From: a virus
Reading direction: 5' to 3' (one strand)
Length of the DNA stretch: 64,000 bases
Virus record (IMG/VR): IMGVR_UViG_3300042561_002100
Location: 115,527 to 179,526 of that record
Shown here: positions 56,040-64,000 of the stretch, one piece after another
Layout of the letters: the number at the start of each line of letters is the position of its first letter
Numbering within the stretch: position 1 is the first letter of the stretch
Notes under the pieces: generated by a model
Seen by the model: the letters and a program-made list of their open reading frames with translations, nothing else
Told to the model about the DNA's origin: nothing
The model's database searches: none
Position numbers and translations under genes: made by a program

Positions 56040-56552
56040 ATGAATCAACAGCGTCAAGATTTTTACCACAAGCTCAACGAAAGTCTTGAAGAAAATAAAA
56101 AATATTTTCTTGACATTTTAACTAGAACCGATAATTCTGCTAAACTACTTCAATGGATTATTGATGATAATATCAATCCCTATGCAGTGTTTCCAGAATA
56201 CCTCGCGGGTTCTTATTGTGGTTTTGAAGCTTTTATCAGTCTTTACACATCTCTCACTTATTTTGAGAAACATGCAGAAGTCACTTATCTTAATATCAAA
56301 GGAAAGAATTCCAATGGGCGTGAATTTGAACTTGGACCTAAAGTCATTCTACGACATCCAACAGATTCAGATTTTAAAGAAGGTGTTATGCGTGATCTAA
56401 ATTTAAAAGAAGTAGATTCTTTTGATGGTGAAGTATTCGTTTATGAGTTTGAGGTTCTTAAGAGTTTGGATGAATTCATTGAAACTTATAACCGAGTAGA
56501 AAAAGAACATCTAAATCTCCATGAAGAGATGGATCGTATTAGAACAAACTGA
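56040..56552 (+). CDS. Hypothetical protein
   Basis: 170-aa ORF after a promoter-like element at 55977-56013. Confidence 0.65.
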   Translation: MNQQRQDFYHKLNESLEENKKYFLDILTRTDNSAKLLQWIIDDNINPYAVFPEYLAGSYCGFEAFISLYTSLTYFEKHAEVTYLNIKGKNSNGREFELGPKVILRHPTDSDFKEGVMRDLNLKEVDSFDGEVFVYEFEVLKSLDEFIETYNRVEKEHLNLHEEMDRIRTN

Positions 56553-56606
56553 TTATGAAAGAGTCAAAGCCGAACTAATCCTTATTGAAAGTAAATTAAA
56601 ACTATC

Positions 56607-57059
56607 ATGCAAATCTCACTAGAAGAACTAAAAGAAATCTTTGATAAAGTTCTCACCGAAGTAAAAGTAAAAAAATGTTGTTCCGAATCAGATAACATTT
56701 TACTATCCAGAGATCCCAAAACTCCACCAAAAACACTCCAAGCCTTAGCGACAGATGTGAATCCTGATGTTCGTTATTTTGTAGCACAAAATCCCAATAC
56801 TCCAACAAAAGTTCTAGAACAACTAGCGACCGATGAGAATTGGCGTGTTCGTTGTGGAGTAGCACATAATCCAAATACTTCAACAAAAACACTAGAACAA
56901 CTAGCGACCGATGAGGATTCTTATGTTCGTTGGGGTGTAGCAAGAAATCCAAACTATAATCCAAAAGAGACTCTTGAAGTAACTAAACAACAAAAAGAAG
57001 CTCTCAAGAAATTGATTGATGCTAGTCAAGACGAATCACTTAAAACTATCAATCTTTAA
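56607..57059 (+). CDS. LRV/HEAT-like repeat protein, 3 units, non-family caps
   Basis: Three repeat units between unrelated N- and C-terminal segments. Confidence 0.85.
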   Translation: MQISLEELKEIFDKVLTEVKVKKCCSESDNILLSRDPKTPPKTLQALATDVNPDVRYFVAQNPNTPTKVLEQLATDENWRVRCGVAHNPNTSTKTLEQLATDEDSYVRWGVARNPNYNPKETLEVTKQQKEALKKLIDASQDESLKTINL

Positions 57060-57074
57060 TTCAGACGGTTGTTA

Positions 57075-57120
57075 AACTGTCACAACAGCCACCCAAATTC
57101 ATCTCTGGGTGGTTTATGCT
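57075..57120 (+). promoter_or_regulatory. Early promoter with upstream box
   Basis: AACTGTCAC; TATGCT at +40; CCACCCA/TGGGTGG inverted repeat in spacer. Confidence 0.65.
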
Positions 57121-57181
57121 AGATATTGTTCAGATAACGATTGATCTTTCTTTTTCGTTCACAATTTTGGAGATTTATTAA

Positions 57182-57754
57182 ATGAGTGACACTTTTCGTT
57201 CTCTTTGTGTTGACTTAGTTGATGTACTGAAGCTTCATTGCAACGACTGTGAGTTTTCTTGGGGAGTAATTGAACGCACCGAGAAACTTCTATCTCAATC
57301 TGAGCCAGAATTTACGACCGAAGAAATTGATATGAACGCTGCACCGTGGAGCCTTTTGACTCCAACACAGTCATCATTAGAGGAAGCCTTGCGCGATGCT
57401 ATCGGTGGATTGCGATACATTGAACAACATTATGGACGACTCTATGGTGTTGGCTGGGATCGTGTCTATAATAATGCCGAATTGCTATTGTGTGAAGATC
57501 CAAAAACTACTTTGACACAATCTTCCGATTATTCAGAGCCGGAGGAGCTGACGGATGATGACATTGAAGAAGCAGCCGCAATTATCTACGAATCGATGCG
57601 TTTTGGTGCCGGCCCCTTGAGCACTCCTCCCTGGATGGAGCATGGCAATTCGCTGATGTAAGATGAAGCACGCCGATCCGCCCGCGCTATCCTCGCCCGC
57701 TCGAGGGCCGCCCCACTGGGCCATCCCGCTGCCCACCACACAGGAGCCCAACCG
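57182..57754 (+). pseudogene. Mosaic gene with premature TAA (57659-57661)
   Basis: HGNSLM*DEARRSARAILAR continues in frame past the stop; GC rises to ~70% around the stop. Confidence 0.55.
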
Positions 57755-57982
57755 ATGAACATCATTCAATCCCTAGACGAAGCGCTAAACCGCAAAGTCA
57801 GATGTACTGATAACGCTTTGCGGCGCCTCACTCACTATGACAATAGCCTTGGGTATTACCAGAGGCCAATAGGGCAAGACGTGTGGATGGACCTAGGCGG
57901 CGTTTATCTGCATGTTTGCCAGAGGCTATTCATCGGCGGCACGATTGAAGACACCAGTACCACATCACAGGAGAAAACATGA
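57755..57982 (+). CDS. Hypothetical protein (GC-rich patch)
   Basis: AGGAG ribosome-binding site upstream; ATGA-coupled downstream. Confidence 0.55.
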   Translation: MNIIQSLDEALNRKVRCTDNALRRLTHYDNSLGYYQRPIGQDVWMDLGGVYLHVCQRLFIGGTIEDTSTTSQEKT

Positions 57983-58293
57983 GCGAATCACATCCTTATA
58001 CCCGTCACATTTCCTACCGCTTTGAGGTACTCGGAGAAGTGATTGAGATCCACAGCATCAACGGAGACGAAGCCATCGTTAGCGAAACTAGATTCAATGG
58101 GCAGGAAGACACTCACATGGTTATGCCCATTGAGCGCGTGAAAGGAGTTTGGAGATGGATAGACGATGAGGATGAGTTCAATCGTTTTGTCAAATATCAC
58201 GGTAGACAGCTAGCAGGAGCAATTCTCAAATACATTAATAAGTATGGTGTTCCAGATACAGAGAAAATCAGTATCACAGAAAAGAGAAATTGA
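57979..58293 (+). CDS. Hypothetical protein
   Basis: Operon ORF. Confidence 0.6.
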   Translation: MSESHPYTRHISYRFEVLGEVIEIHSINGDEAIVSETRFNGQEDTHMVMPIERVKGVWRWIDDEDEFNRFVKYHGRQLAGAILKYINKYGVPDTEKISITEKRN

Positions 58294-58296
58294 ACG

Positions 58297-58638
58297 ATGT
58301 TTGATAACTTTATTAACGGCTTTCTTTTTGGCTCAATGAGCGTACTACTATTGTGGTATGTTTTTGATTATCGCAAAATTTTACGAATTTTAGAAGACTT
58401 TGATCATCTAAGGGGATATAAACGACTTAACTTATTAATATCACCGCCTCTTGCGAAAGACATGAGAAATCTTAAAAATAAAACAGGTCTTTCTGAAGAT
58501 GAGATTTTTTACCTAGCAATGGCACTTTACAGAGTATCATATGATACTAAGGAAAAAGGTGGATGTGTTATTCTAAAAAATTCAGATGGCACTATCAGAG
58601 AAAATGTTGGTTTTGCGACACTTCCAGTCAATCGGTAA
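58297..58638 (+). CDS. Membrane-anchored ribbon-helix-helix-like protein
   Basis: N-terminal TM; RLNLLISPPLAKDM..L...TGLS..EIF..AM. Confidence 0.5.
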   Translation: MFDNFINGFLFGSMSVLLLWYVFDYRKILRILEDFDHLRGYKRLNLLISPPLAKDMRNLKNKTGLSEDEIFYLAMALYRVSYDTKEKGGCVILKNSDGTIRENVGFATLPVNR

Positions 58639-58682
58639 ACTGGCACACCAATCACCCAAACTGATCGTTTGGGTGCTACACT
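58638..58682 (+). promoter_or_regulatory. Early promoter with upstream box
   Basis: AACTGGCAC; TG-C-TACACT at +39; perfect CACCCAAA/TTTGGGTG inverted repeat in spacer. Confidence 0.75.
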
Positions 58683-58709
58683 AATTTTATTCAACGAGGA
58701 ACTCATATT

Positions 58710-59036
58710 ATGAATCAAGAAGTTAAAACAAAATGGATCCAGGCTCTTAGATCTGGAAAGTACAAGCAAGGTTTTGGTGTTCTTCGCAGTGAAGACTGTT
58801 ATTGTTGTCTTGGCGTTTTATGTGATCTGAATGAAGATACGGATTGGGAAGTCCTTGATAATCCAGTAAAAAATATTTATAAGCCATCTCCAGATGATTC
58901 CTATATGTGTCTACCCAATAAAATATCTGAATGGGCAGAACTAACATCTCATCAAGAAGATGTATTAGCGACATTTAATGATACAGCTAGGTACACTTTT
59001 GAACAAATTGCCGATTACATTGAAGAGAATCTTTGA
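58710..59036 (+). CDS. Conserved phage protein, paralogue 1
   Basis: KWIQALRSGKYKQG..L...YCCLGVLCDL...TFEQIADYIE. Confidence 0.75.
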   Translation: MNQEVKTKWIQALRSGKYKQGFGVLRSEDCYCCLGVLCDLNEDTDWEVLDNPVKNIYKPSPDDSYMCLPNKISEWAELTSHQEDVLATFNDTARYTFEQIADYIEENL

Positions 59037-59365
59037 TTATGAATCAAGAAGTTAAAACAAAATGGATCCAGGCTCTTAGATCTGGAAAGTACAAACAAGG
59101 TCAAGCATATCTTCGTGAAGGTGAATATTATTGTTGTCTTGGTGTTTTATGTGATCTGAATGAATCAAGACAATGGACTCCTATTGATCGTCCATCTAAA
59201 AAGATTTATAGCCCATTTCCCAATGAAGACCATCTAATGTTACCTAAAAATATCTCTCAGTGGGCAAATTTAATAGAAATTGAACAGGACGAGCTAATAA
59301 AACTTAATGATACAGATAATTACACTTTTGAACAAATTGCCGATTACATTGAAGAGAATCTTTGA
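59033..59365 (+). CDS. Conserved phage protein, paralogue 2 (tandem duplicate)
   Basis: Identical N- and C-termini to paralogue 1. Confidence 0.75.
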   Translation: MIMNQEVKTKWIQALRSGKYKQGQAYLREGEYYCCLGVLCDLNESRQWTPIDRPSKKIYSPFPNEDHLMLPKNISQWANLIEIEQDELIKLNDTDNYTFEQIADYIEENL

Positions 59366-59811
59366 TTATGCAAGAACATTTCCAAATTGTTAAACATTAT
59401 CAACGTACAACTTTTGATAATATCAAAAAATATCTAAAAGAAGGTAATTATGTTGCCGCCATTAATTGTTGGCAACATTCATATTATCCTATTTCGGTAG
59501 AAAATTTTCTTGCTTGTAATGAAACTGAAACTAATCGTGAACTTTTGGATAGTATTAAAGATATTCTTTCTTCAGTTGAACATTCTGTAAATAAAATTGA
59601 AGAGCATCTTAGAGAAGAAAGTTCACTATGGCAAGAAATGATGGAAGCGGGAGCACATCATAGTCATCCTCACCATCAAATGGCCGACAAAATTTTATGT
59701 GTTAGAGATTGGATTGACAATCATTTCTCTGCTAGAAAAATTGATTCTGGTGCGGTATTTGCTGCACTTACTAATCAAGCAAATAAATGTCGCAACTTTA
59801 AGCGTGATTAA
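59362..59811 (+). CDS. Hypothetical protein
   Basis: Coupled ORF. Confidence 0.6.
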   Translation: MIMQEHFQIVKHYQRTTFDNIKKYLKEGNYVAAINCWQHSYYPISVENFLACNETETNRELLDSIKDILSSVEHSVNKIEEHLREESSLWQEMMEAGAHHSHPHHQMADKILCVRDWIDNHFSARKIDSGAVFAALTNQANKCRNFKRD

Positions 59812-59814
59812 TAA

Positions 59815-60477
59815 ATGTTAAAAATCTTAGAATCCCAAGTTAAAATCGCCACAGAAGAAGCGGTCAAAGAACTTACTAAACCTTCATGGGTCGAACTTCC
59901 AGAATGGGCTGAGTGTCTTGGATTCGCTTTTTCTAGAGATGACGATGAATTTTATAATTCCATTTACGGAAAAGAATTAGTGGATCAAATGAAAGGTTAT
60001 TGGTGTTATTTTTCTTTTAATGATCCAGTAGGTGTTGCAAATCTTGAATATCGTCCAGAAGATAATACCATCAAAAAATATATTGTATGGATATGGTCAA
60101 TAGAAGGGGTAGGAATCAATTTTTATGTTGAAACTACTCTTTCTAAGACAAAACTTCAAAAATATTATTATCTAAAAAGTCCTACTATAAAAAGAGTTGA
60201 TGTTTACACAGAAGATCAAGAGATTCCCATTGATGGTAAACTACTAGGATCTGATCCAACAGTAAAAGTTGAATCTGCTGATTATGATATTCTGATTAGT
60301 GATATCCAAAAACATTATATTAAACTCAATAAAGAATTTGAATCATTATCTAAGAAACTTACAAATCCCAATTTTAAAGAAAAAGCACCAAAATCAGTTG
60401 TCCTAAAATGTCAAAGTGATTACGAAAAAGTTGAATCTAATTTAGCACTTCTTAAAACTAAATTGAATCTATTATGA
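59815..60477 (+). CDS. Protein ending in a valyl-tRNA synthetase C-terminal coiled-coil arm
   Basis: LSKKLTNPNFKEKAPKSVV...LL..KL..L matches the ValRS C-terminal arm. Confidence 0.7.
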   Translation: MLKILESQVKIATEEAVKELTKPSWVELPEWAECLGFAFSRDDDEFYNSIYGKELVDQMKGYWCYFSFNDPVGVANLEYRPEDNTIKKYIVWIWSIEGVGINFYVETTLSKTKLQKYYYLKSPTIKRVDVYTEDQEIPIDGKLLGSDPTVKVESADYDILISDIQKHYIKLNKEFESLSKKLTNPNFKEKAPKSVVLKCQSDYEKVESNLALLKTKLNLL

Positions 60478-60692
60478 CCAAGGAAGAACTTCTCCAATTT
60501 GTTAATCAGTATCAACGTTATTTTAATGTTGATGATCTCCAAGATTTAGAACCATTGGAAATCTTAAAAAAATTTACTCATAGATGTTATGAGTATGGAC
60601 ATGAGAAAGGAGATAGAAGGGGTTATAGAGAAGGTTTTGACGCAGGATATAAAGAAATAGAGTCTAGAGTATTAGATCTTTTTAATCATTAA
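60474..60692 (+). CDS. Hypothetical protein
   Basis: Coupled ORF; YEYGHEKG..GY.EGF.AG. Confidence 0.55.
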   Translation: MTKEELLQFVNQYQRYFNVDDLQDLEPLEILKKFTHRCYEYGHEKGDRRGYREGFDAGYKEIESRVLDLFNH

Positions 60693-60709
60693 ATCATCTT
60701 TCTAACATC

Positions 60710-61105
60710 ATGACCCGACGAATCATTGAAGAGCACATCACACTTTATGGAATCAATAACGATATTGATTCTCTAATTAATGAGCTACTAAAATATAAAG
60801 ATCAAGGATTTGAAAAATATACAACTGATCGTGAGGGTTTTATTGAACTTCATACTCTTCGTCCTGAGACCGAAGAAGAATCTCAAGAGCGACTTGAGCT
60901 TGAACGTCAAAGAGATGAACGACAAAAAAGAGAGTTAGAACAAAGACAAAAAGCTAAATTGCTCAAACAACAACGAAAAGAATATCACAGACTAAAAAAT
61001 ATTTTAAGTGATTCAACATTTAACGATAAGACTCCGACTCATATAGTAGAACAATACCATAATCGTTATAATACTCTTAAAGATATTCTCATTGCCACTT
61101 TATGA
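60710..61105 (+). CDS. Hypothetical coiled-coil protein
   Basis: RPETEEE..ERL; distant similarity to 61948-62253. Confidence 0.6.
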   Translation: MTRRIIEEHITLYGINNDIDSLINELLKYKDQGFEKYTTDREGFIELHTLRPETEEESQERLELERQRDERQKRELEQRQKAKLLKQQRKEYHRLKNILSDSTFNDKTPTHIVEQYHNRYNTLKDILIATL

Positions 61106-61150
61106 ACTGTCACACCGAAGAGCATTAAAACAGTTCAGATATGCAAGAAT
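61105..61150 (+). promoter_or_regulatory. Early promoter with upstream box
   Basis: AACTGTCAC; TG-C-AAGAAT at +40. Confidence 0.5.
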
Positions 61151-61175
61151 GATCAAGTTGGATGAAACATCGCTT

Positions 61176-61529
61176 ATGATCTGGCTTATTAAAGAACTTA
61201 GAGATGAGTTATTTTATTATCTCGCTAAAACAAAATATACACCACCAAAAGTTCTAGAACAACTAGCAACCGAAAAGGATTCTAGTGTTCGTGAATGTGT
61301 AGCACTAAATCCAAACACACCAACAAAAGCCCTAGAACTTCTAGCTACTGATAGGTATTGTTATGTTCGTTGGAATGTAGCAAGAAATCCAAACACACCA
61401 ACAAAAGCCCTAGAACTTCTAGCTACTGATAGGTATTATTGTGTTCGTTGTGATGTAGCAAGAAATCCAAACACTCCCCACTACATCAAAAAGTATCTTA
61501 AAATTCAAGAACATCTGGCGACGTTATGA
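61176..61529 (+). CDS. LRV/HEAT-like repeat protein, 3 units
   Basis: Repeat plus C-cap; start moved downstream of the promoter (track gives 61092). Confidence 0.85.
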   Translation: MIWLIKELRDELFYYLAKTKYTPPKVLEQLATEKDSSVRECVALNPNTPTKALELLATDRYCYVRWNVARNPNTPTKALELLATDRYYCVRCDVARNPNTPHYIKKYLKIQEHLATL

Positions 61530-61744
61530 ACAAATTTGAACAAGCTATAGATCCATCCACACCATCAAAAGCACTAGAACTACTAACGACCGATGAGGAT
61601 GATTATGTTCGTAGGTTTGTAGCAAGAAATCCAAACACACCACCAAAAATATTAAAACAACTAGCGACCGATGAGGATTATGATGTTCATGAAGAAGCTT
61701 CACAAAAACATTTTCTTATTATGATGCAAAATATTATCCGATAG
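61526..61744 (+). CDS. Truncated LRV repeat protein (N-cap plus 1-2 units, no C-cap)
   Basis: MNKFEQA N-cap; repeat breaks off at YDVH. Confidence 0.7.
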   Translation: MNKFEQAIDPSTPSKALELLTTDEDDYVRRFVARNPNTPPKILKQLATDEDYDVHEEASQKHFLIMMQNIIR

Positions 61745-61947
61745 AAAAGGTAAAAGGTACATAAGAATTAAAACTATTAAAACTAAAACACATCTACTAA
61801 AATTAATTATGGATAAACGTACAACATCAATGATCGTAATGACCACAGGATCGTTACTCACTATTATTGGATTATTGCCCAATGGACTCGTGTTTCTTTG
61901 GGTGGGTGGATTTATGTTTGGAACTGGTATTACTATATGGAGCGGTC

Positions 61948-62253
61948 ATGAAGAAAATTAGTAGAATTACGATCCATGAAGAGCAAATAATTGATTTGGA
62001 TGTTGATATTGATTCAGCTATTTCCCAACTACAATCATATAAAGAACAAGGTTGGGATAGAGTACGCTGTACTACAATATCTCATATGTATGATGTTGGT
62101 GAATATCCTGCAATATTAGTCTGTAGAAATAGATTGGAAACAGATGAAGAATATGAAAAGCGAAAAAAGAAAGAAGAACAGTTAAAAACCAAACAACAAG
62201 AATTAGATCTTAAAGAATACAGCAGACTAAAAAAATTATTTGAAAACAAATGA
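61948..62253 (+). CDS. Hypothetical protein
   Basis: RLETDEEYEKRK; ATG 61948 preferred. Confidence 0.6.
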   Translation: MKKISRITIHEEQIIDLDVDIDSAISQLQSYKEQGWDRVRCTTISHMYDVGEYPAILVCRNRLETDEEYEKRKKKEEQLKTKQQELDLKEYSRLKKLFENK

Positions 62254-62462
62254 ATGCCAAAGTTTATAAAATCATACTACAAGTTATTGATTATCAATCA
62301 GAAGAAGAAATTCGTTATAGAATAGAAAACATAAAAGATCTTTATCCCACAGTGATTACCATGGAATCAAGAGATCTCGGTGAGTGGTATGACGATCATC
62401 CATTAAACAAAAAAGAAACTTATTTAGCGGAATTTGAGAGGTTATTTAATGAGCAAGCTTAA
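62250..62462 (+). CDS. Hypothetical protein
   Basis: DLGEWYDDHPLN motif. Confidence 0.6.
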   Translation: MNAKVYKIILQVIDYQSEEEIRYRIENIKDLYPTVITMESRDLGEWYDDHPLNKKETYLAEFERLFNEQA

Positions 62463-62757
62463 TTTGAATGAATTATCTTATGAAGAATTATTGAATATAC
62501 AAGAAGACATTGAAAAAGAGATGTCTAATAGAAAAGATATGAGGGTATATAAGATCAGTTTTTACGTGGGCTTCATATCAAATAAACACCGACATGATGA
62601 GTTACTAACAGCAGATGATTTTGGTTATTATTTTGTTAATGAACCATCTAGGATGATTATAAATGATCTTAACCTCATTCATCCCGAAGATGTATCTGGT
62701 TTTGATGTAATAGAGCTGAAACCAGATCAGTTTCCAGATATGTTTAAAACAACTTAA
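62449..62757 (+). CDS. Hypothetical protein
   Basis: ATG 62449 preferred. Confidence 0.55.
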
Positions 62758-62770
62758 GATTAGAATAATT

Positions 62771-64000
62771 ATGAAAGAATGGCGACAATCACAACTACCA
62801 GATTGGATTCGGCGGGGAATGGTGGATCTGTTTCCTGAGGATGGTCTAGCTGAACGGTTAGATCAAACGGATCAACCTCTGCGGGTGAAACTGGGCATTG
62901 ATCCTACAGGTAGTGATATTCATCTGGGCCATTCAATTCTGTTCCGCCGCCTGCGGGCGTTTCAGGATGCGGGCCATACGGCGGTGCTGATCCTGGGGGA
63001 TTTCACCGCCCGCATCGGCGATCCCACGGGCAAGAGCGCTACGCGGGTGCAGCTGAGCGCGGCGGAGGTGGAGGCGTATGCGGAAACCTATCTGGTGCAA
63101 TTGGGCCTGGGCCAACCACGCGAGCGAGCGTTGCTGGATTTCGAAACTCCGGGCCGGCTGGAGGTGCGCCGCAACAGTGAATGGCTGGCGGGCCTGGATC
63201 TACCGCAGGTGATTGAGCTGCTGGGCACGAGCACGGTGGGCCAGATGCTGGCGAAGGAGGATTTCGCGAACCGCTACGGCAACGGCACACCGATTTCCTT
63301 GCATGAATTCCTCTACCCGCTGCTGCAGGGGTATGACTCGGTGGCGATCGAAGCGGACGTGGAACTGGGCGGCACGGATCAGAAGTTCAACGTGGCGATG
63401 GGCCGCGATCTGCAGCGCCACTTCGGCCAGCGCCCGCAATTCGGGATGCTGCTGCCGATTTTGCCGGGCACCGATGGCGTGCAGAAGATGAGCAAGAGCC
63501 TGGGCAATACGGTGGGCCTGCGGGAAGACCCGCTCTCGATGTATTCAAAGCTAGAAAAAGTGCCCGATGCATTAGTGGACGATTATATTACATTATTAAC
63601 CGATTTCAATCTTAAAGAATTACCAGAAAATCCCCGTGAACGCCAGAAAATAATGGCGTTAGATATAACTAGCAACTTCCACGGTGAAGATGTAGCAAAA
63701 ATGGCACAGAAGAATGCTGTTCAGTTAGTTTGTAATAATGGGAATCAAAATGTAGATCTCGTTAATGTTCCTGAGAATTCTCTTTCTAGTGTTAATTTTC
63801 CAGCTAAGGCATTTTATCTTCTATCAGCAATAGGAATATGTGCTACCAGTAGCGACGCTCAGCGACAAATTAAAGGTGGAGCTGTCCGATTAAATGGTGA
63901 AAAATTAACCGATCCTAATTATGTGTTTACATCAATAACAGAACTAGAAGGAAAGGTTGTGCAGTTGGGAAAGAAAGTATTTCGGAGATTGATAAAATAA
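62771..64000 (+). CDS. tyrS: Tyrosyl-tRNA synthetase, cyanobacterial type, GC-mosaic
   Basis: [15 protein letters not shown] (HIGH), [23 protein letters not shown]-terminal S4-like domain; TAA at 63998-64000. Confidence 0.95.

Follow-up and report, generated by a model that had tools for sequence, protein, structure and literature searches.

Mosaic genes of cyanophages

The closest described precedent for the gene treated here is found in the photosystem genes psbA and psbD of cyanophages, in which patchy %G+C has been reported together with intragenic recombination between the copies of host and phage (Sullivan et al. 2006, PMC1484495; the work of Zeidner et al. 2005 is also discussed there). 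The gene in question is tyrS, encoding a tyrosyl-tRNA synthetase (TyrRS), the last gene of the 179,526-bp IMG/VR record IMGVR_UViG_3300042561_002100 (35.3% GC). The final 64 kb of this record (positions 115,527 to 179,526) were analysed and are referred to below as the window, whose position 1 is the first base of this stretch. We conclude that tyrS is very probably an old captured gene in which a core of about 0.6 kb was later replaced by exchange with the allele of a Cyanobium-like host. As with psbA and psbD, a host-derived gene resides in a T4-like cyanophage which is AT-rich and infects a GC-rich Synechococcus-type host, and segments of host-like GC content lie within an intact open reading frame (ORF), a structure explained by homologous host-phage exchange. 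The event is of the same kind, but in a gene of another class, with unusually sharp junctions, an identified donor clade and replacement to the precision of a module. Unlike the photosystem genes, tyrS specifies a core translation enzyme; it contains one tract of 0.6 kb, the junctions of which are resolved to 9 and 17 nt; and the donor clade is identified at 95–97% nucleotide identity, while the flanks are far more diverged (57–69%) than those of the psbA mosaics.

With respect to the enzyme, the product resembles bacterial TyrRS (TIGR00234; PDB: 6bqy, 1h3e, 2ts1) in being full-length, with HIGH and KMSKS signatures and alpha-helical and S4-like C-terminal domains. It differs from them as a phage-encoded chimera which has a host-identical core and an N-terminus and tRNA-binding domains that are 34–46% diverged in protein. 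Al-Shayeb and co-workers are said to have found in 2020 that aminoacyl-tRNA synthetase genes are common in huge phages. A large phage genome with a tyrS is also seen in the jumbo or huge Yersinia phage fHe-Yen9-04 and Erwinia phage pEa_SNUABM phages, although their TyrRS are only 25–41% identical to the present protein. In a collection of 50,697 cultured-phage records there was no blastn match to tyrS and no comparable tyrS in any cultured cyanophage, the best protein match having 40.6% amino acid identity. Synechococcus phages B3 and B23 (MN695334 and MN695335; ~244 kb) are the nearest cultured relatives as judged by the gp46 counterpart, and are similar in size to a 244-kb contig carrying this tyrS; they are only distant relatives, however, and no tyrS match was found in them. 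Neither a cyanophage tyrS nor a comparable patch in a phage aminoacyl-tRNA synthetase was described in the literature searched, whose coverage was incomplete, so that this amounts to absence of evidence.

The tyrS gene and its product

The tyrS product is predicted to be a full-length, chimeric TyrRS of the bacterial type. It matches TIGR00234 over residues 8–407 (353.8 bits; cut-off 113.8) and the Pfam family tRNA-synt_1b (PF00579; 233.6 bits, above the cut-off). A C-terminal S4-like domain (PF01479; 33.1 bits, cut-off 22.8) and SYY_C-terminal (PF22421; 30.2 bits, cut-off 27) were also detected, and the closest solved structures are the TyrRS 6bqy and 1h3e. Both class I signatures, HIGH and KMSKS, are intact. 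The gene is a single unbroken ORF without an indel at either junction, so that the frame is seamless. For comparison, the DNA of five host-context tyrS genes (L088–L092, the near hosts) was fetched and codon-aligned to the phage gene. The resulting features are given below in window coordinates, where GC3 denotes GC content at third codon positions.

62771–64000, + strand: tyrS ORF, 409 aa, bacterial-type tyrosyl-tRNA synthetase; its stop codon is at the final base of the IMG/VR record
62771–62938, + strand: 5' phage-type segment (aa 1–56), 67–69% nucleotide identity to near hosts, GC3 0.32
62921–62932, + strand: HIGH signature (HLGH, aa 51–54), from the translation; in the phage-type segment, just 5' of the tract
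62939–62947, + strand: 5' crossover interval; last phage-specific site 62938, first near-host-only site the CGC codon 62948–62950
62939–63564, + strand: apparently host-derived, converted tract (aa 57–265), minimum 62948–63523, maximum 62939–63570; GC 0.636, GC3 0.80
63485–63499, + strand: KMSKS signature (aa 239–243), from the translation; within the tract
63554–63570, + strand: 3' crossover interval (conservatively 63524–63570); 63553 is common to host L088, first unambiguous phage-specific site 63571
63565–63997, + strand: 3' phage-type segment (aa 266–409), alpha-helical anticodon-binding and S4-like C-terminal domains; 57% nucleotide identity to near hosts, GC3 0.24
63768–63818, + strand: 51-bp in-frame segment (17 aa, start of the S4-like domain), deleted in haplotype L007 from another sample

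A GC-rich tract in an AT-rich gene

An earlier note on this DNA, made from the sequence alone, had described a GC-rich patch of about 600 bp in an AT-rich tyrS, with GC-rich third positions, intermediate values at the 5' end, AT-rich sequence after 63545 and a seamless frame, and the composition bears this out throughout. In windows of 120 bp, GC is 0.23–0.37 upstream of tyrS, 0.44–0.48 in its first ~170 bp, 0.60–0.69 from ~62940 to 63540, and 0.31–0.41 past 63545. The 626-bp tract at 62939–63564 stands at 0.636, with flanks within tyrS of 0.36–0.47, and GC3 falls from 0.80 in the tract to 0.32 and 0.24 in the 5' and 3' flanks, respectively. Compared with all windows of its size in the genome (mean 0.353, sd 0.039), the tract has a z of 7.3; it is the highest-GC window of this size in the 179.5-kb record, the runner-up having 0.562.

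The flanks have also shifted in protein composition, FYMINK residues amounting to 26% versus 13% in hosts and GARP residues to 22% versus 41%. This shift toward AT-rich codons indicates long residence in an AT-rich genome. Only 10 sites in the tract have a state peculiar to the phage, 5 of which are AT-ward, and the tract has therefore barely begun to ameliorate.

Relatedness of tract and flanks to host tyrS

A search of 5.8 billion proteins returned Cyanobium and Synechococcaceae TyrRS with ~82% identity over the whole length. This identity is unevenly distributed: it reaches 96–99% at aa 56–258 and is 50–75% elsewhere. Residues 262–409, used as a separate query against the same proteins, retrieved only two haplotypes of the same phage, followed by hosts at 66% or less. 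Within the tract, just two residues differ from the closest hosts (Y103H and V109L).

All five near-host tyrS genes are GC-rich; a DUF1825 gene was called just upstream in L088, L089 and L091, and the L088 gene sits in a 3.6-Mb genome. The tract has 95.2–96.8% nucleotide and 99% amino acid identity to these genes, against 67–69% (5') and 57% (3') nucleotide identity in the flanks. Mismatches between the phage and L089 number 20/626 within the tract and 238/601 outside it (Fisher p = 8e-62); the corresponding contrast between hosts is mild, with an odds ratio of only 0.63. With other picocyanobacterial species the phage shares 81–84% in the tract, 62–65% in the 5' flank and 50–57% in the 3' flank. 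As a control, near host L089 compared with Cyanobium L008 gives 84.5% in the tract, 74% in the 5' flank and 79% in the 3' flank. Hosts whose flanks are about as far from a near host as those of the phage (~62–65% amino acid identity) reach just 75–80% in the core, where the phage has 99%.

Synonymous sites give the same picture, most synonymous codons being unchanged inside the tract. Between phage and near hosts the tract has a synonymous divergence (dS) of 0.13–0.20 and a nonsynonymous divergence (dN) of 0.004–0.007, and the near hosts differ from each other in the same tract by a dS of 0.06–0.17; in the flanks the proportion of synonymous differences (pS) is 0.89, i.e., saturated, and dN is 0.28. 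The nearest sampled host, at a dS of ~0.13 in the tract, is thus at the edge of the host clade's own diversity. The earlier note had called the recombination very recent and had expected it to identify the host. It is recent at the level of the host clade; an identical donor was not found, and the host is identified to the clade.

Phylogenies of the separate segments were also run. In the tree of the tract, the phage lies inside the near-host clade with SH-like approximate likelihood ratio test (SH-aLRT) support of 98 for the protein and 100/100 for the DNA, and its terminal branch is no longer than those of the near hosts. In the tree of the concatenated flanks, its branch is long (0.41) and diverges at the base of the picocyanobacteria. 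The origin of the flanks is still picocyanobacterial, which makes the phage gene an old captured copy. The donor of the tract is assigned by its relatedness to one clade of freshwater Cyanobium-like picocyanobacteria, at clade and not at strain level.

Junctions and the exchanged module

The 5' crossover falls directly after HIGH. From 62899 to 62938 nearly every third codon position differs from the hosts while the protein is identical, and to the left of 62939 the longest run common to phage and host copies is 11 nt. The 3' crossover falls within a conserved stretch of 10 residues about 20 codons past KMSKS. The earlier note had placed the patch between just after HIGH and just after KMSKS. 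HIGH is indeed 5' of the tract and KMSKS inside it; by host identity, however, the tract ends at ~63564–63570, some 20 bp beyond the drop in GC. The GC content falls before the true 3' junction because the host sequence itself is AT-richer there.

On these coordinates the exchanged module would consist of the Rossmann-fold catalytic core after HIGH, the KMSKS loop and connective peptide 1 (CP1), the dimer-interface insertion that separates the two Rossmann halves. Both tRNA-binding parts, the alpha-helical anticodon-binding domain and the S4-like domain, appear to remain of the phage type, as had been proposed for the S4-like end. The domain layout used here follows alignment to solved TyrRS and the layout of the enzymes of Bacillus stearothermophilus and Thermus thermophilus.

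Independent assemblies and haplotypes

Further contigs were gathered through exact protein matches and then through neighbouring genes, from different samples assembled by the Joint Genome Institute (JGI) and Logan pipelines. The exact 409-aa protein is encoded on four contigs, two of 5–10 kb, one of 20–50 kb and one of 244 kb. At least nine contigs cross a junction, each an independent assembly, and they represent different samples and both pipelines. One is the window's own record, which crosses both junctions. The samples that yielded contigs include JGI 3300044632, 3300044533, 3300049629 and 3300059473 and the runs SRR27428584, SRR27430808, SRR27419709 and SRR27426708. The other junction-crossing contigs are as follows, in window coordinates.

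L097, Logan: 61505–63186, crosses the 5' junction
L100, Logan: 62187–63501, crosses the 5' junction
L102, JGI: 62953 onward, crosses the 3' junction
L103, Logan: 63478 onward, crosses the 3' junction
L105, Logan: 63478 onward, crosses the 3' junction
L106, Logan: 63472 onward, crosses the 3' junction
L006, JGI: 62126–64000 and 4 kb further downstream, crosses both junctions
L007, JGI: 62747–64000 and 144 bp further downstream, crosses both junctions

The 5' junction on L097 and L100 comes from two Logan runs. All of the junction-crossing contigs are 100% identical to the window with the exception of L007, which is identical at the junctions. In a pairwise alignment, L007 has the same patch and the same junctions as the window and departs from it in two A>G single-nucleotide polymorphisms (63750 and 63765) and the 51-bp deletion, being otherwise identical. 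The deletion may mean that the phage-type C-terminal domain is under relaxed constraint, or that the variant is defective.

Among the host contigs, L091 (JGI 3300042309) is itself mosaic. Its tyrS has 96–98% identity to the other near hosts up to ~63535 in window numbering and ~63% thereafter, and its 3' part (aligned to ~63535–63997) is nearest to a different Synechococcaceae lineage (81% amino acid identity). Either hosts have recombined with each other at this same domain boundary, or sequences of different strains were joined into a chimera on a short contig.

History of the gene and alternative explanations

The following sequence of events would account for the mosaic. An ancestor of the phage would have captured tyrS from a picocyanobacterium long ago, and the captured gene would then have drifted to the AT-rich composition of the phage and diverged in protein. 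Later, a double crossover or gene conversion with a Cyanobium-like host tyrS, or with a very recent copy of one, would have replaced ~0.6 kb, from just after HIGH to ~20 codons past KMSKS, both exchange points lying in short conserved runs. The exchange presumably took place during infection, between the phage and host copies. Its product would be an intact chimeric TyrRS with a host-like catalytic and dimerisation core (2 aa differences) and with N-terminal 56 residues and tRNA-binding domains specific to the phage. The suggestion in the earlier note of phage-host gene conversion in a translation gene is supported in this form; since the flanks are also picocyanobacterial, the event refreshed an old captured gene and was not its first acquisition. 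To judge from its host composition and its graded relatedness to other picocyanobacteria, the tract would have passed from host to phage. Such an exchange is probably rare, because the flanks offer only ~60–70% identity with short conserved runs; it probably occurred and then spread, being carried by every sampled member of the phage lineage.

Several observations weigh against this history. An approximately unbiased (AU) test on the flanks does not reject a grouping of the phage with the near-host clade (p = 0.28), so that the topological conflict is not significant alone, and the contrast between the segments is one of branch length and synonymous divergence. The nearest host differs from the phage at 20 of the 626 tract sites, no identical donor having been found, and some phage states in the tract match more distant hosts; the true donor is therefore unsampled, or time has passed since the exchange. 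An unconverted AT-rich allele was not found in the databases searched, and the state before the exchange is one that we infer. The support for the junctions comes from assembled contigs and not from raw reads or coverage, and assemblies break in or beside the patch, at 62920–62953 and 63472–63501, marking a region that is hard to assemble: L098 ends at 62920, L102 starts at 62953, L103 and L105 start at 63478, and L100 and L106 overlap by exactly 30 bp (63472–63501).

These last two points bear on the possibility, named in the earlier note as the main alternative, that the gene is an assembly chimera in which a host tyrS core was threaded between the ends of a wholly AT-rich phage tyrS. The patch does match, over long exact stretches, genes of hosts that probably live in the same waters, several contigs (L098, L102, L100/L106) end at or inside it, the short host contig L091 is mosaic from ~63535, and the evidence is at the contig and not the read level. 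Nevertheless, we regard a chimera as very unlikely, and it is contradicted by the contigs that cross the junctions: the same two in-frame junctions, identical in each, recur in at least nine assemblies from different samples and two pipelines. Logan contigs derive from a graph with k = 31, in which a false join needs a common 30-mer and a contig should break at such a node; the Logan contigs pass straight through the junctions. To the left of 62939 the phage differs from the hosts at nearly every third base, leaving no long k-mers for a false join, and the distinct haplotype with the 51-bp deletion carries the same junctions. An alternative AT-rich core was present in none of the contigs examined and in none of the 5.8 billion proteins. 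The breaks in the assemblies fit a real patch whose k-mers are also present in the tyrS of co-occurring hosts, which would make the graph branch there. Pattern scans of viral contigs with a 50-mer across the 5' junction and a C-terminal 26-mer gave no match, which says little, as records near the window's genome were excluded; likewise, a scan of metagenome contigs with two patch patterns gave none and says little, as host sample 3300043514 is apparently outside the collection.

A real exchange might also have been indirect, the core having come from another phage or a mobile element with a freshly acquired host tyrS by phage-phage recombination in a co-infection. In psbA and psbD, recombination takes place most often inside the pool of phage genes (PMC1484495); moreover, the exact donor of the tract is unsampled, and other GC-rich patches in this phage, e.g., in a DNA methyltransferase gene, have no match in five host genomes. 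Such a route nonetheless appears improbable. The tract keeps host codon usage (GC3 0.80) and is within the diversity of the host clade, so that any intermediate was brief or itself GC-rich, and neither viral contigs nor cultured phages yielded a close tyrS, the best matches having 50% and 40.6% amino acid identity, respectively. We give practically no credence to the absence of any exchange, with a core that resisted AT drift by constraint, or to the reverse event, a transfer of the core from the phage to the host clade. Among hosts, too, no part of TyrRS is as conserved as the catalytic core, as in the control above (84.5% in the tract, 74–79% in the flanks), but selection on the protein could not have kept synonymous third positions 93% identical to those of one host clade. 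In addition, both boundaries are sharp, being confined to 9 and 17 nt, the composition of the tract matches that of the host gene (67.5% GC), and the graded relatedness to other picocyanobacteria (81–84%) is the pattern of a host-resident sequence.

We return, therefore, to an old captured tyrS with a core replaced from a Cyanobium-like host. Bacterial TyrRS binds tRNA across the dimer, as in the complex of T. thermophilus. It is conceivable, though we consider it doubtful, that the chimera is maintained: repeated conversion would keep the core and the dimer interface matched to the current host allele while the tRNA-binding domains evolve freely, and mixed dimers of phage and host subunits would re-aim or take over charging in the host. 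If so, the phage-type anticodon-binding and S4-like domains would feed host active sites through these mixed dimers. In any case, the phage TyrRS probably charges host tRNA-Tyr during infection. Genes for tRNA-Leu, tRNA-Arg and two tRNA-Met are present in the record, in which no tRNA-Tyr gene was found. Tyr accounts for 4.7% of residues in the phage ORFs against ~1% in a crude sample of host ORFs, and a Tyr-rich proteome would be a plausible reason to carry tyrS.

The mosaic indicates that the host-to-phage gene conversion known from photosystem genes also acts on a core translation gene, and that the replacement can be confined to exactly one structural module of an enzyme. Through the patch, an uncultured freshwater cyanophage of ~244 kb is tied to one clade of Cyanobium-like picocyanobacteria without culturing. 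Old, ameliorated segments and a freshly imported one lie side by side in the gene, a natural experiment on rates of amelioration, and flanks of ~60–70% identity allow the homology limits for exchange to be studied. There is also a practical caution, in that a virus database cut its contig at tyrS and several assemblies break in the patch.

Identity of the phage and context of tyrS

The phage is, from its T4-type recombination genes and its nearest relatives among the cyanomyoviruses, assigned to the T4-like freshwater cyanomyoviruses. Its SbcC/Rad50-type protein (SMC_N/AAA_23), the counterpart of T4 gp46, has 52.6% amino acid identity to that of Synechococcus phages B3/B23, and the best matches of this protein are in Synechococcus and Prochlorococcus myoviruses (46–53%), marine cyanomyoviruses among them. 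A neighbouring ORF, which has no Pfam hit, is read from its position as the counterpart of gp47 (Mre11/SbcD-type), and a gene of the RecA family (UvsX-type) is also present. The phage thus has recombination machinery of its own. No psbA was found in the record, which is 83% complete. The best relative of the tyrS product among viral contigs is L001, with 50% amino acid identity. This contig was rejected as a model of the unconverted phage allele, since its flanks are only 45% identical and the contig has 45–50% GC.

The IMG/VR record is labelled 'provirus' and was cut exactly at the tyrS stop codon, and L006:1876–5844 continues beyond it. Downstream of tyrS, L006 contains AT-rich phage-like genes, among them an HNH endonuclease, members of PHROG families and a cytidylyltransferase/NUDIX protein. 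A prophage integrated beside a host tyrS was rejected as an explanation, because independent contigs have AT-rich, phage-like DNA to either side of the gene. The cut resembles a boundary-prediction artefact, and we would guess that it may have been triggered by the host-like patch with its jump in GC. The HNH endonuclease gene is at L006:2592–3125, ~0.7 kb downstream of tyrS and beyond the window; the idea that breaks made by this nuclease could stimulate local recombination may be entertained.

Other GC-rich islands and neighbouring ORFs

Three other GC-rich loci were compared with the five host genomes, in which the match to tyrS served as a positive control. A DNA methyltransferase (N6/N4) gene outside the window, between the gp47- and gp46-like ORFs (G000:C1:54324–55496; L093:1325–2497), is strongly patchy in GC3, which runs from 0.05 to 0.75–0.85, back to 0.05 and then to 0.65. 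Its GC-rich segments have 78–90% amino acid identity to metagenomic relatives and its flanks 50–67%; methyltransferase relatives have 71% identity or less. A near-identical donor of this gene was not found, nor was a DNA match in the five host genomes, and it may be an older or a phage-to-phage mosaic. Also outside the window, at G000:C1:86600–87900 (L094:1600–2900), the C-terminal part of a tail-fibre-like ORF of 795 aa and the next ORF have 50–60% GC. No DNA match to this locus was present in the five host genomes, whereas Synechococcus phages B3/B23 match weakly (69%) at the DNA level just 5' of its GC-rich part. Within the window, an island at 57400–57950 (maximum 0.68 at ~57674–57774) runs from the last part of a 159-aa ORF into the beginning of a 75-aa ORF; the island had no match in Pfam, Rfam, cultured phages or the five host genomes. 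A general patching of the genome with host DNA is thus unsupported, since the methyltransferase, tail-fibre-like and 57.4–57.9 kb islands are all without a match in these genomes.

An Rfam scan of 56500–64000 gave no match. Near tyrS, at 59815–60477 of the window, a 220-aa ORF has a Pfam match to Val_tRNA-synt_C, the coiled-coil tRNA-binding tail of valyl-tRNA synthetase (ValRS), and may be a second translation-related fragment in this part of the genome. Upstream of tyrS, at 61092–61744, a pair of adjacent ORFs is made up of leucine-rich repeat variant (LRV) repeats bearing an NPNTP motif, and the genome has further copies elsewhere.

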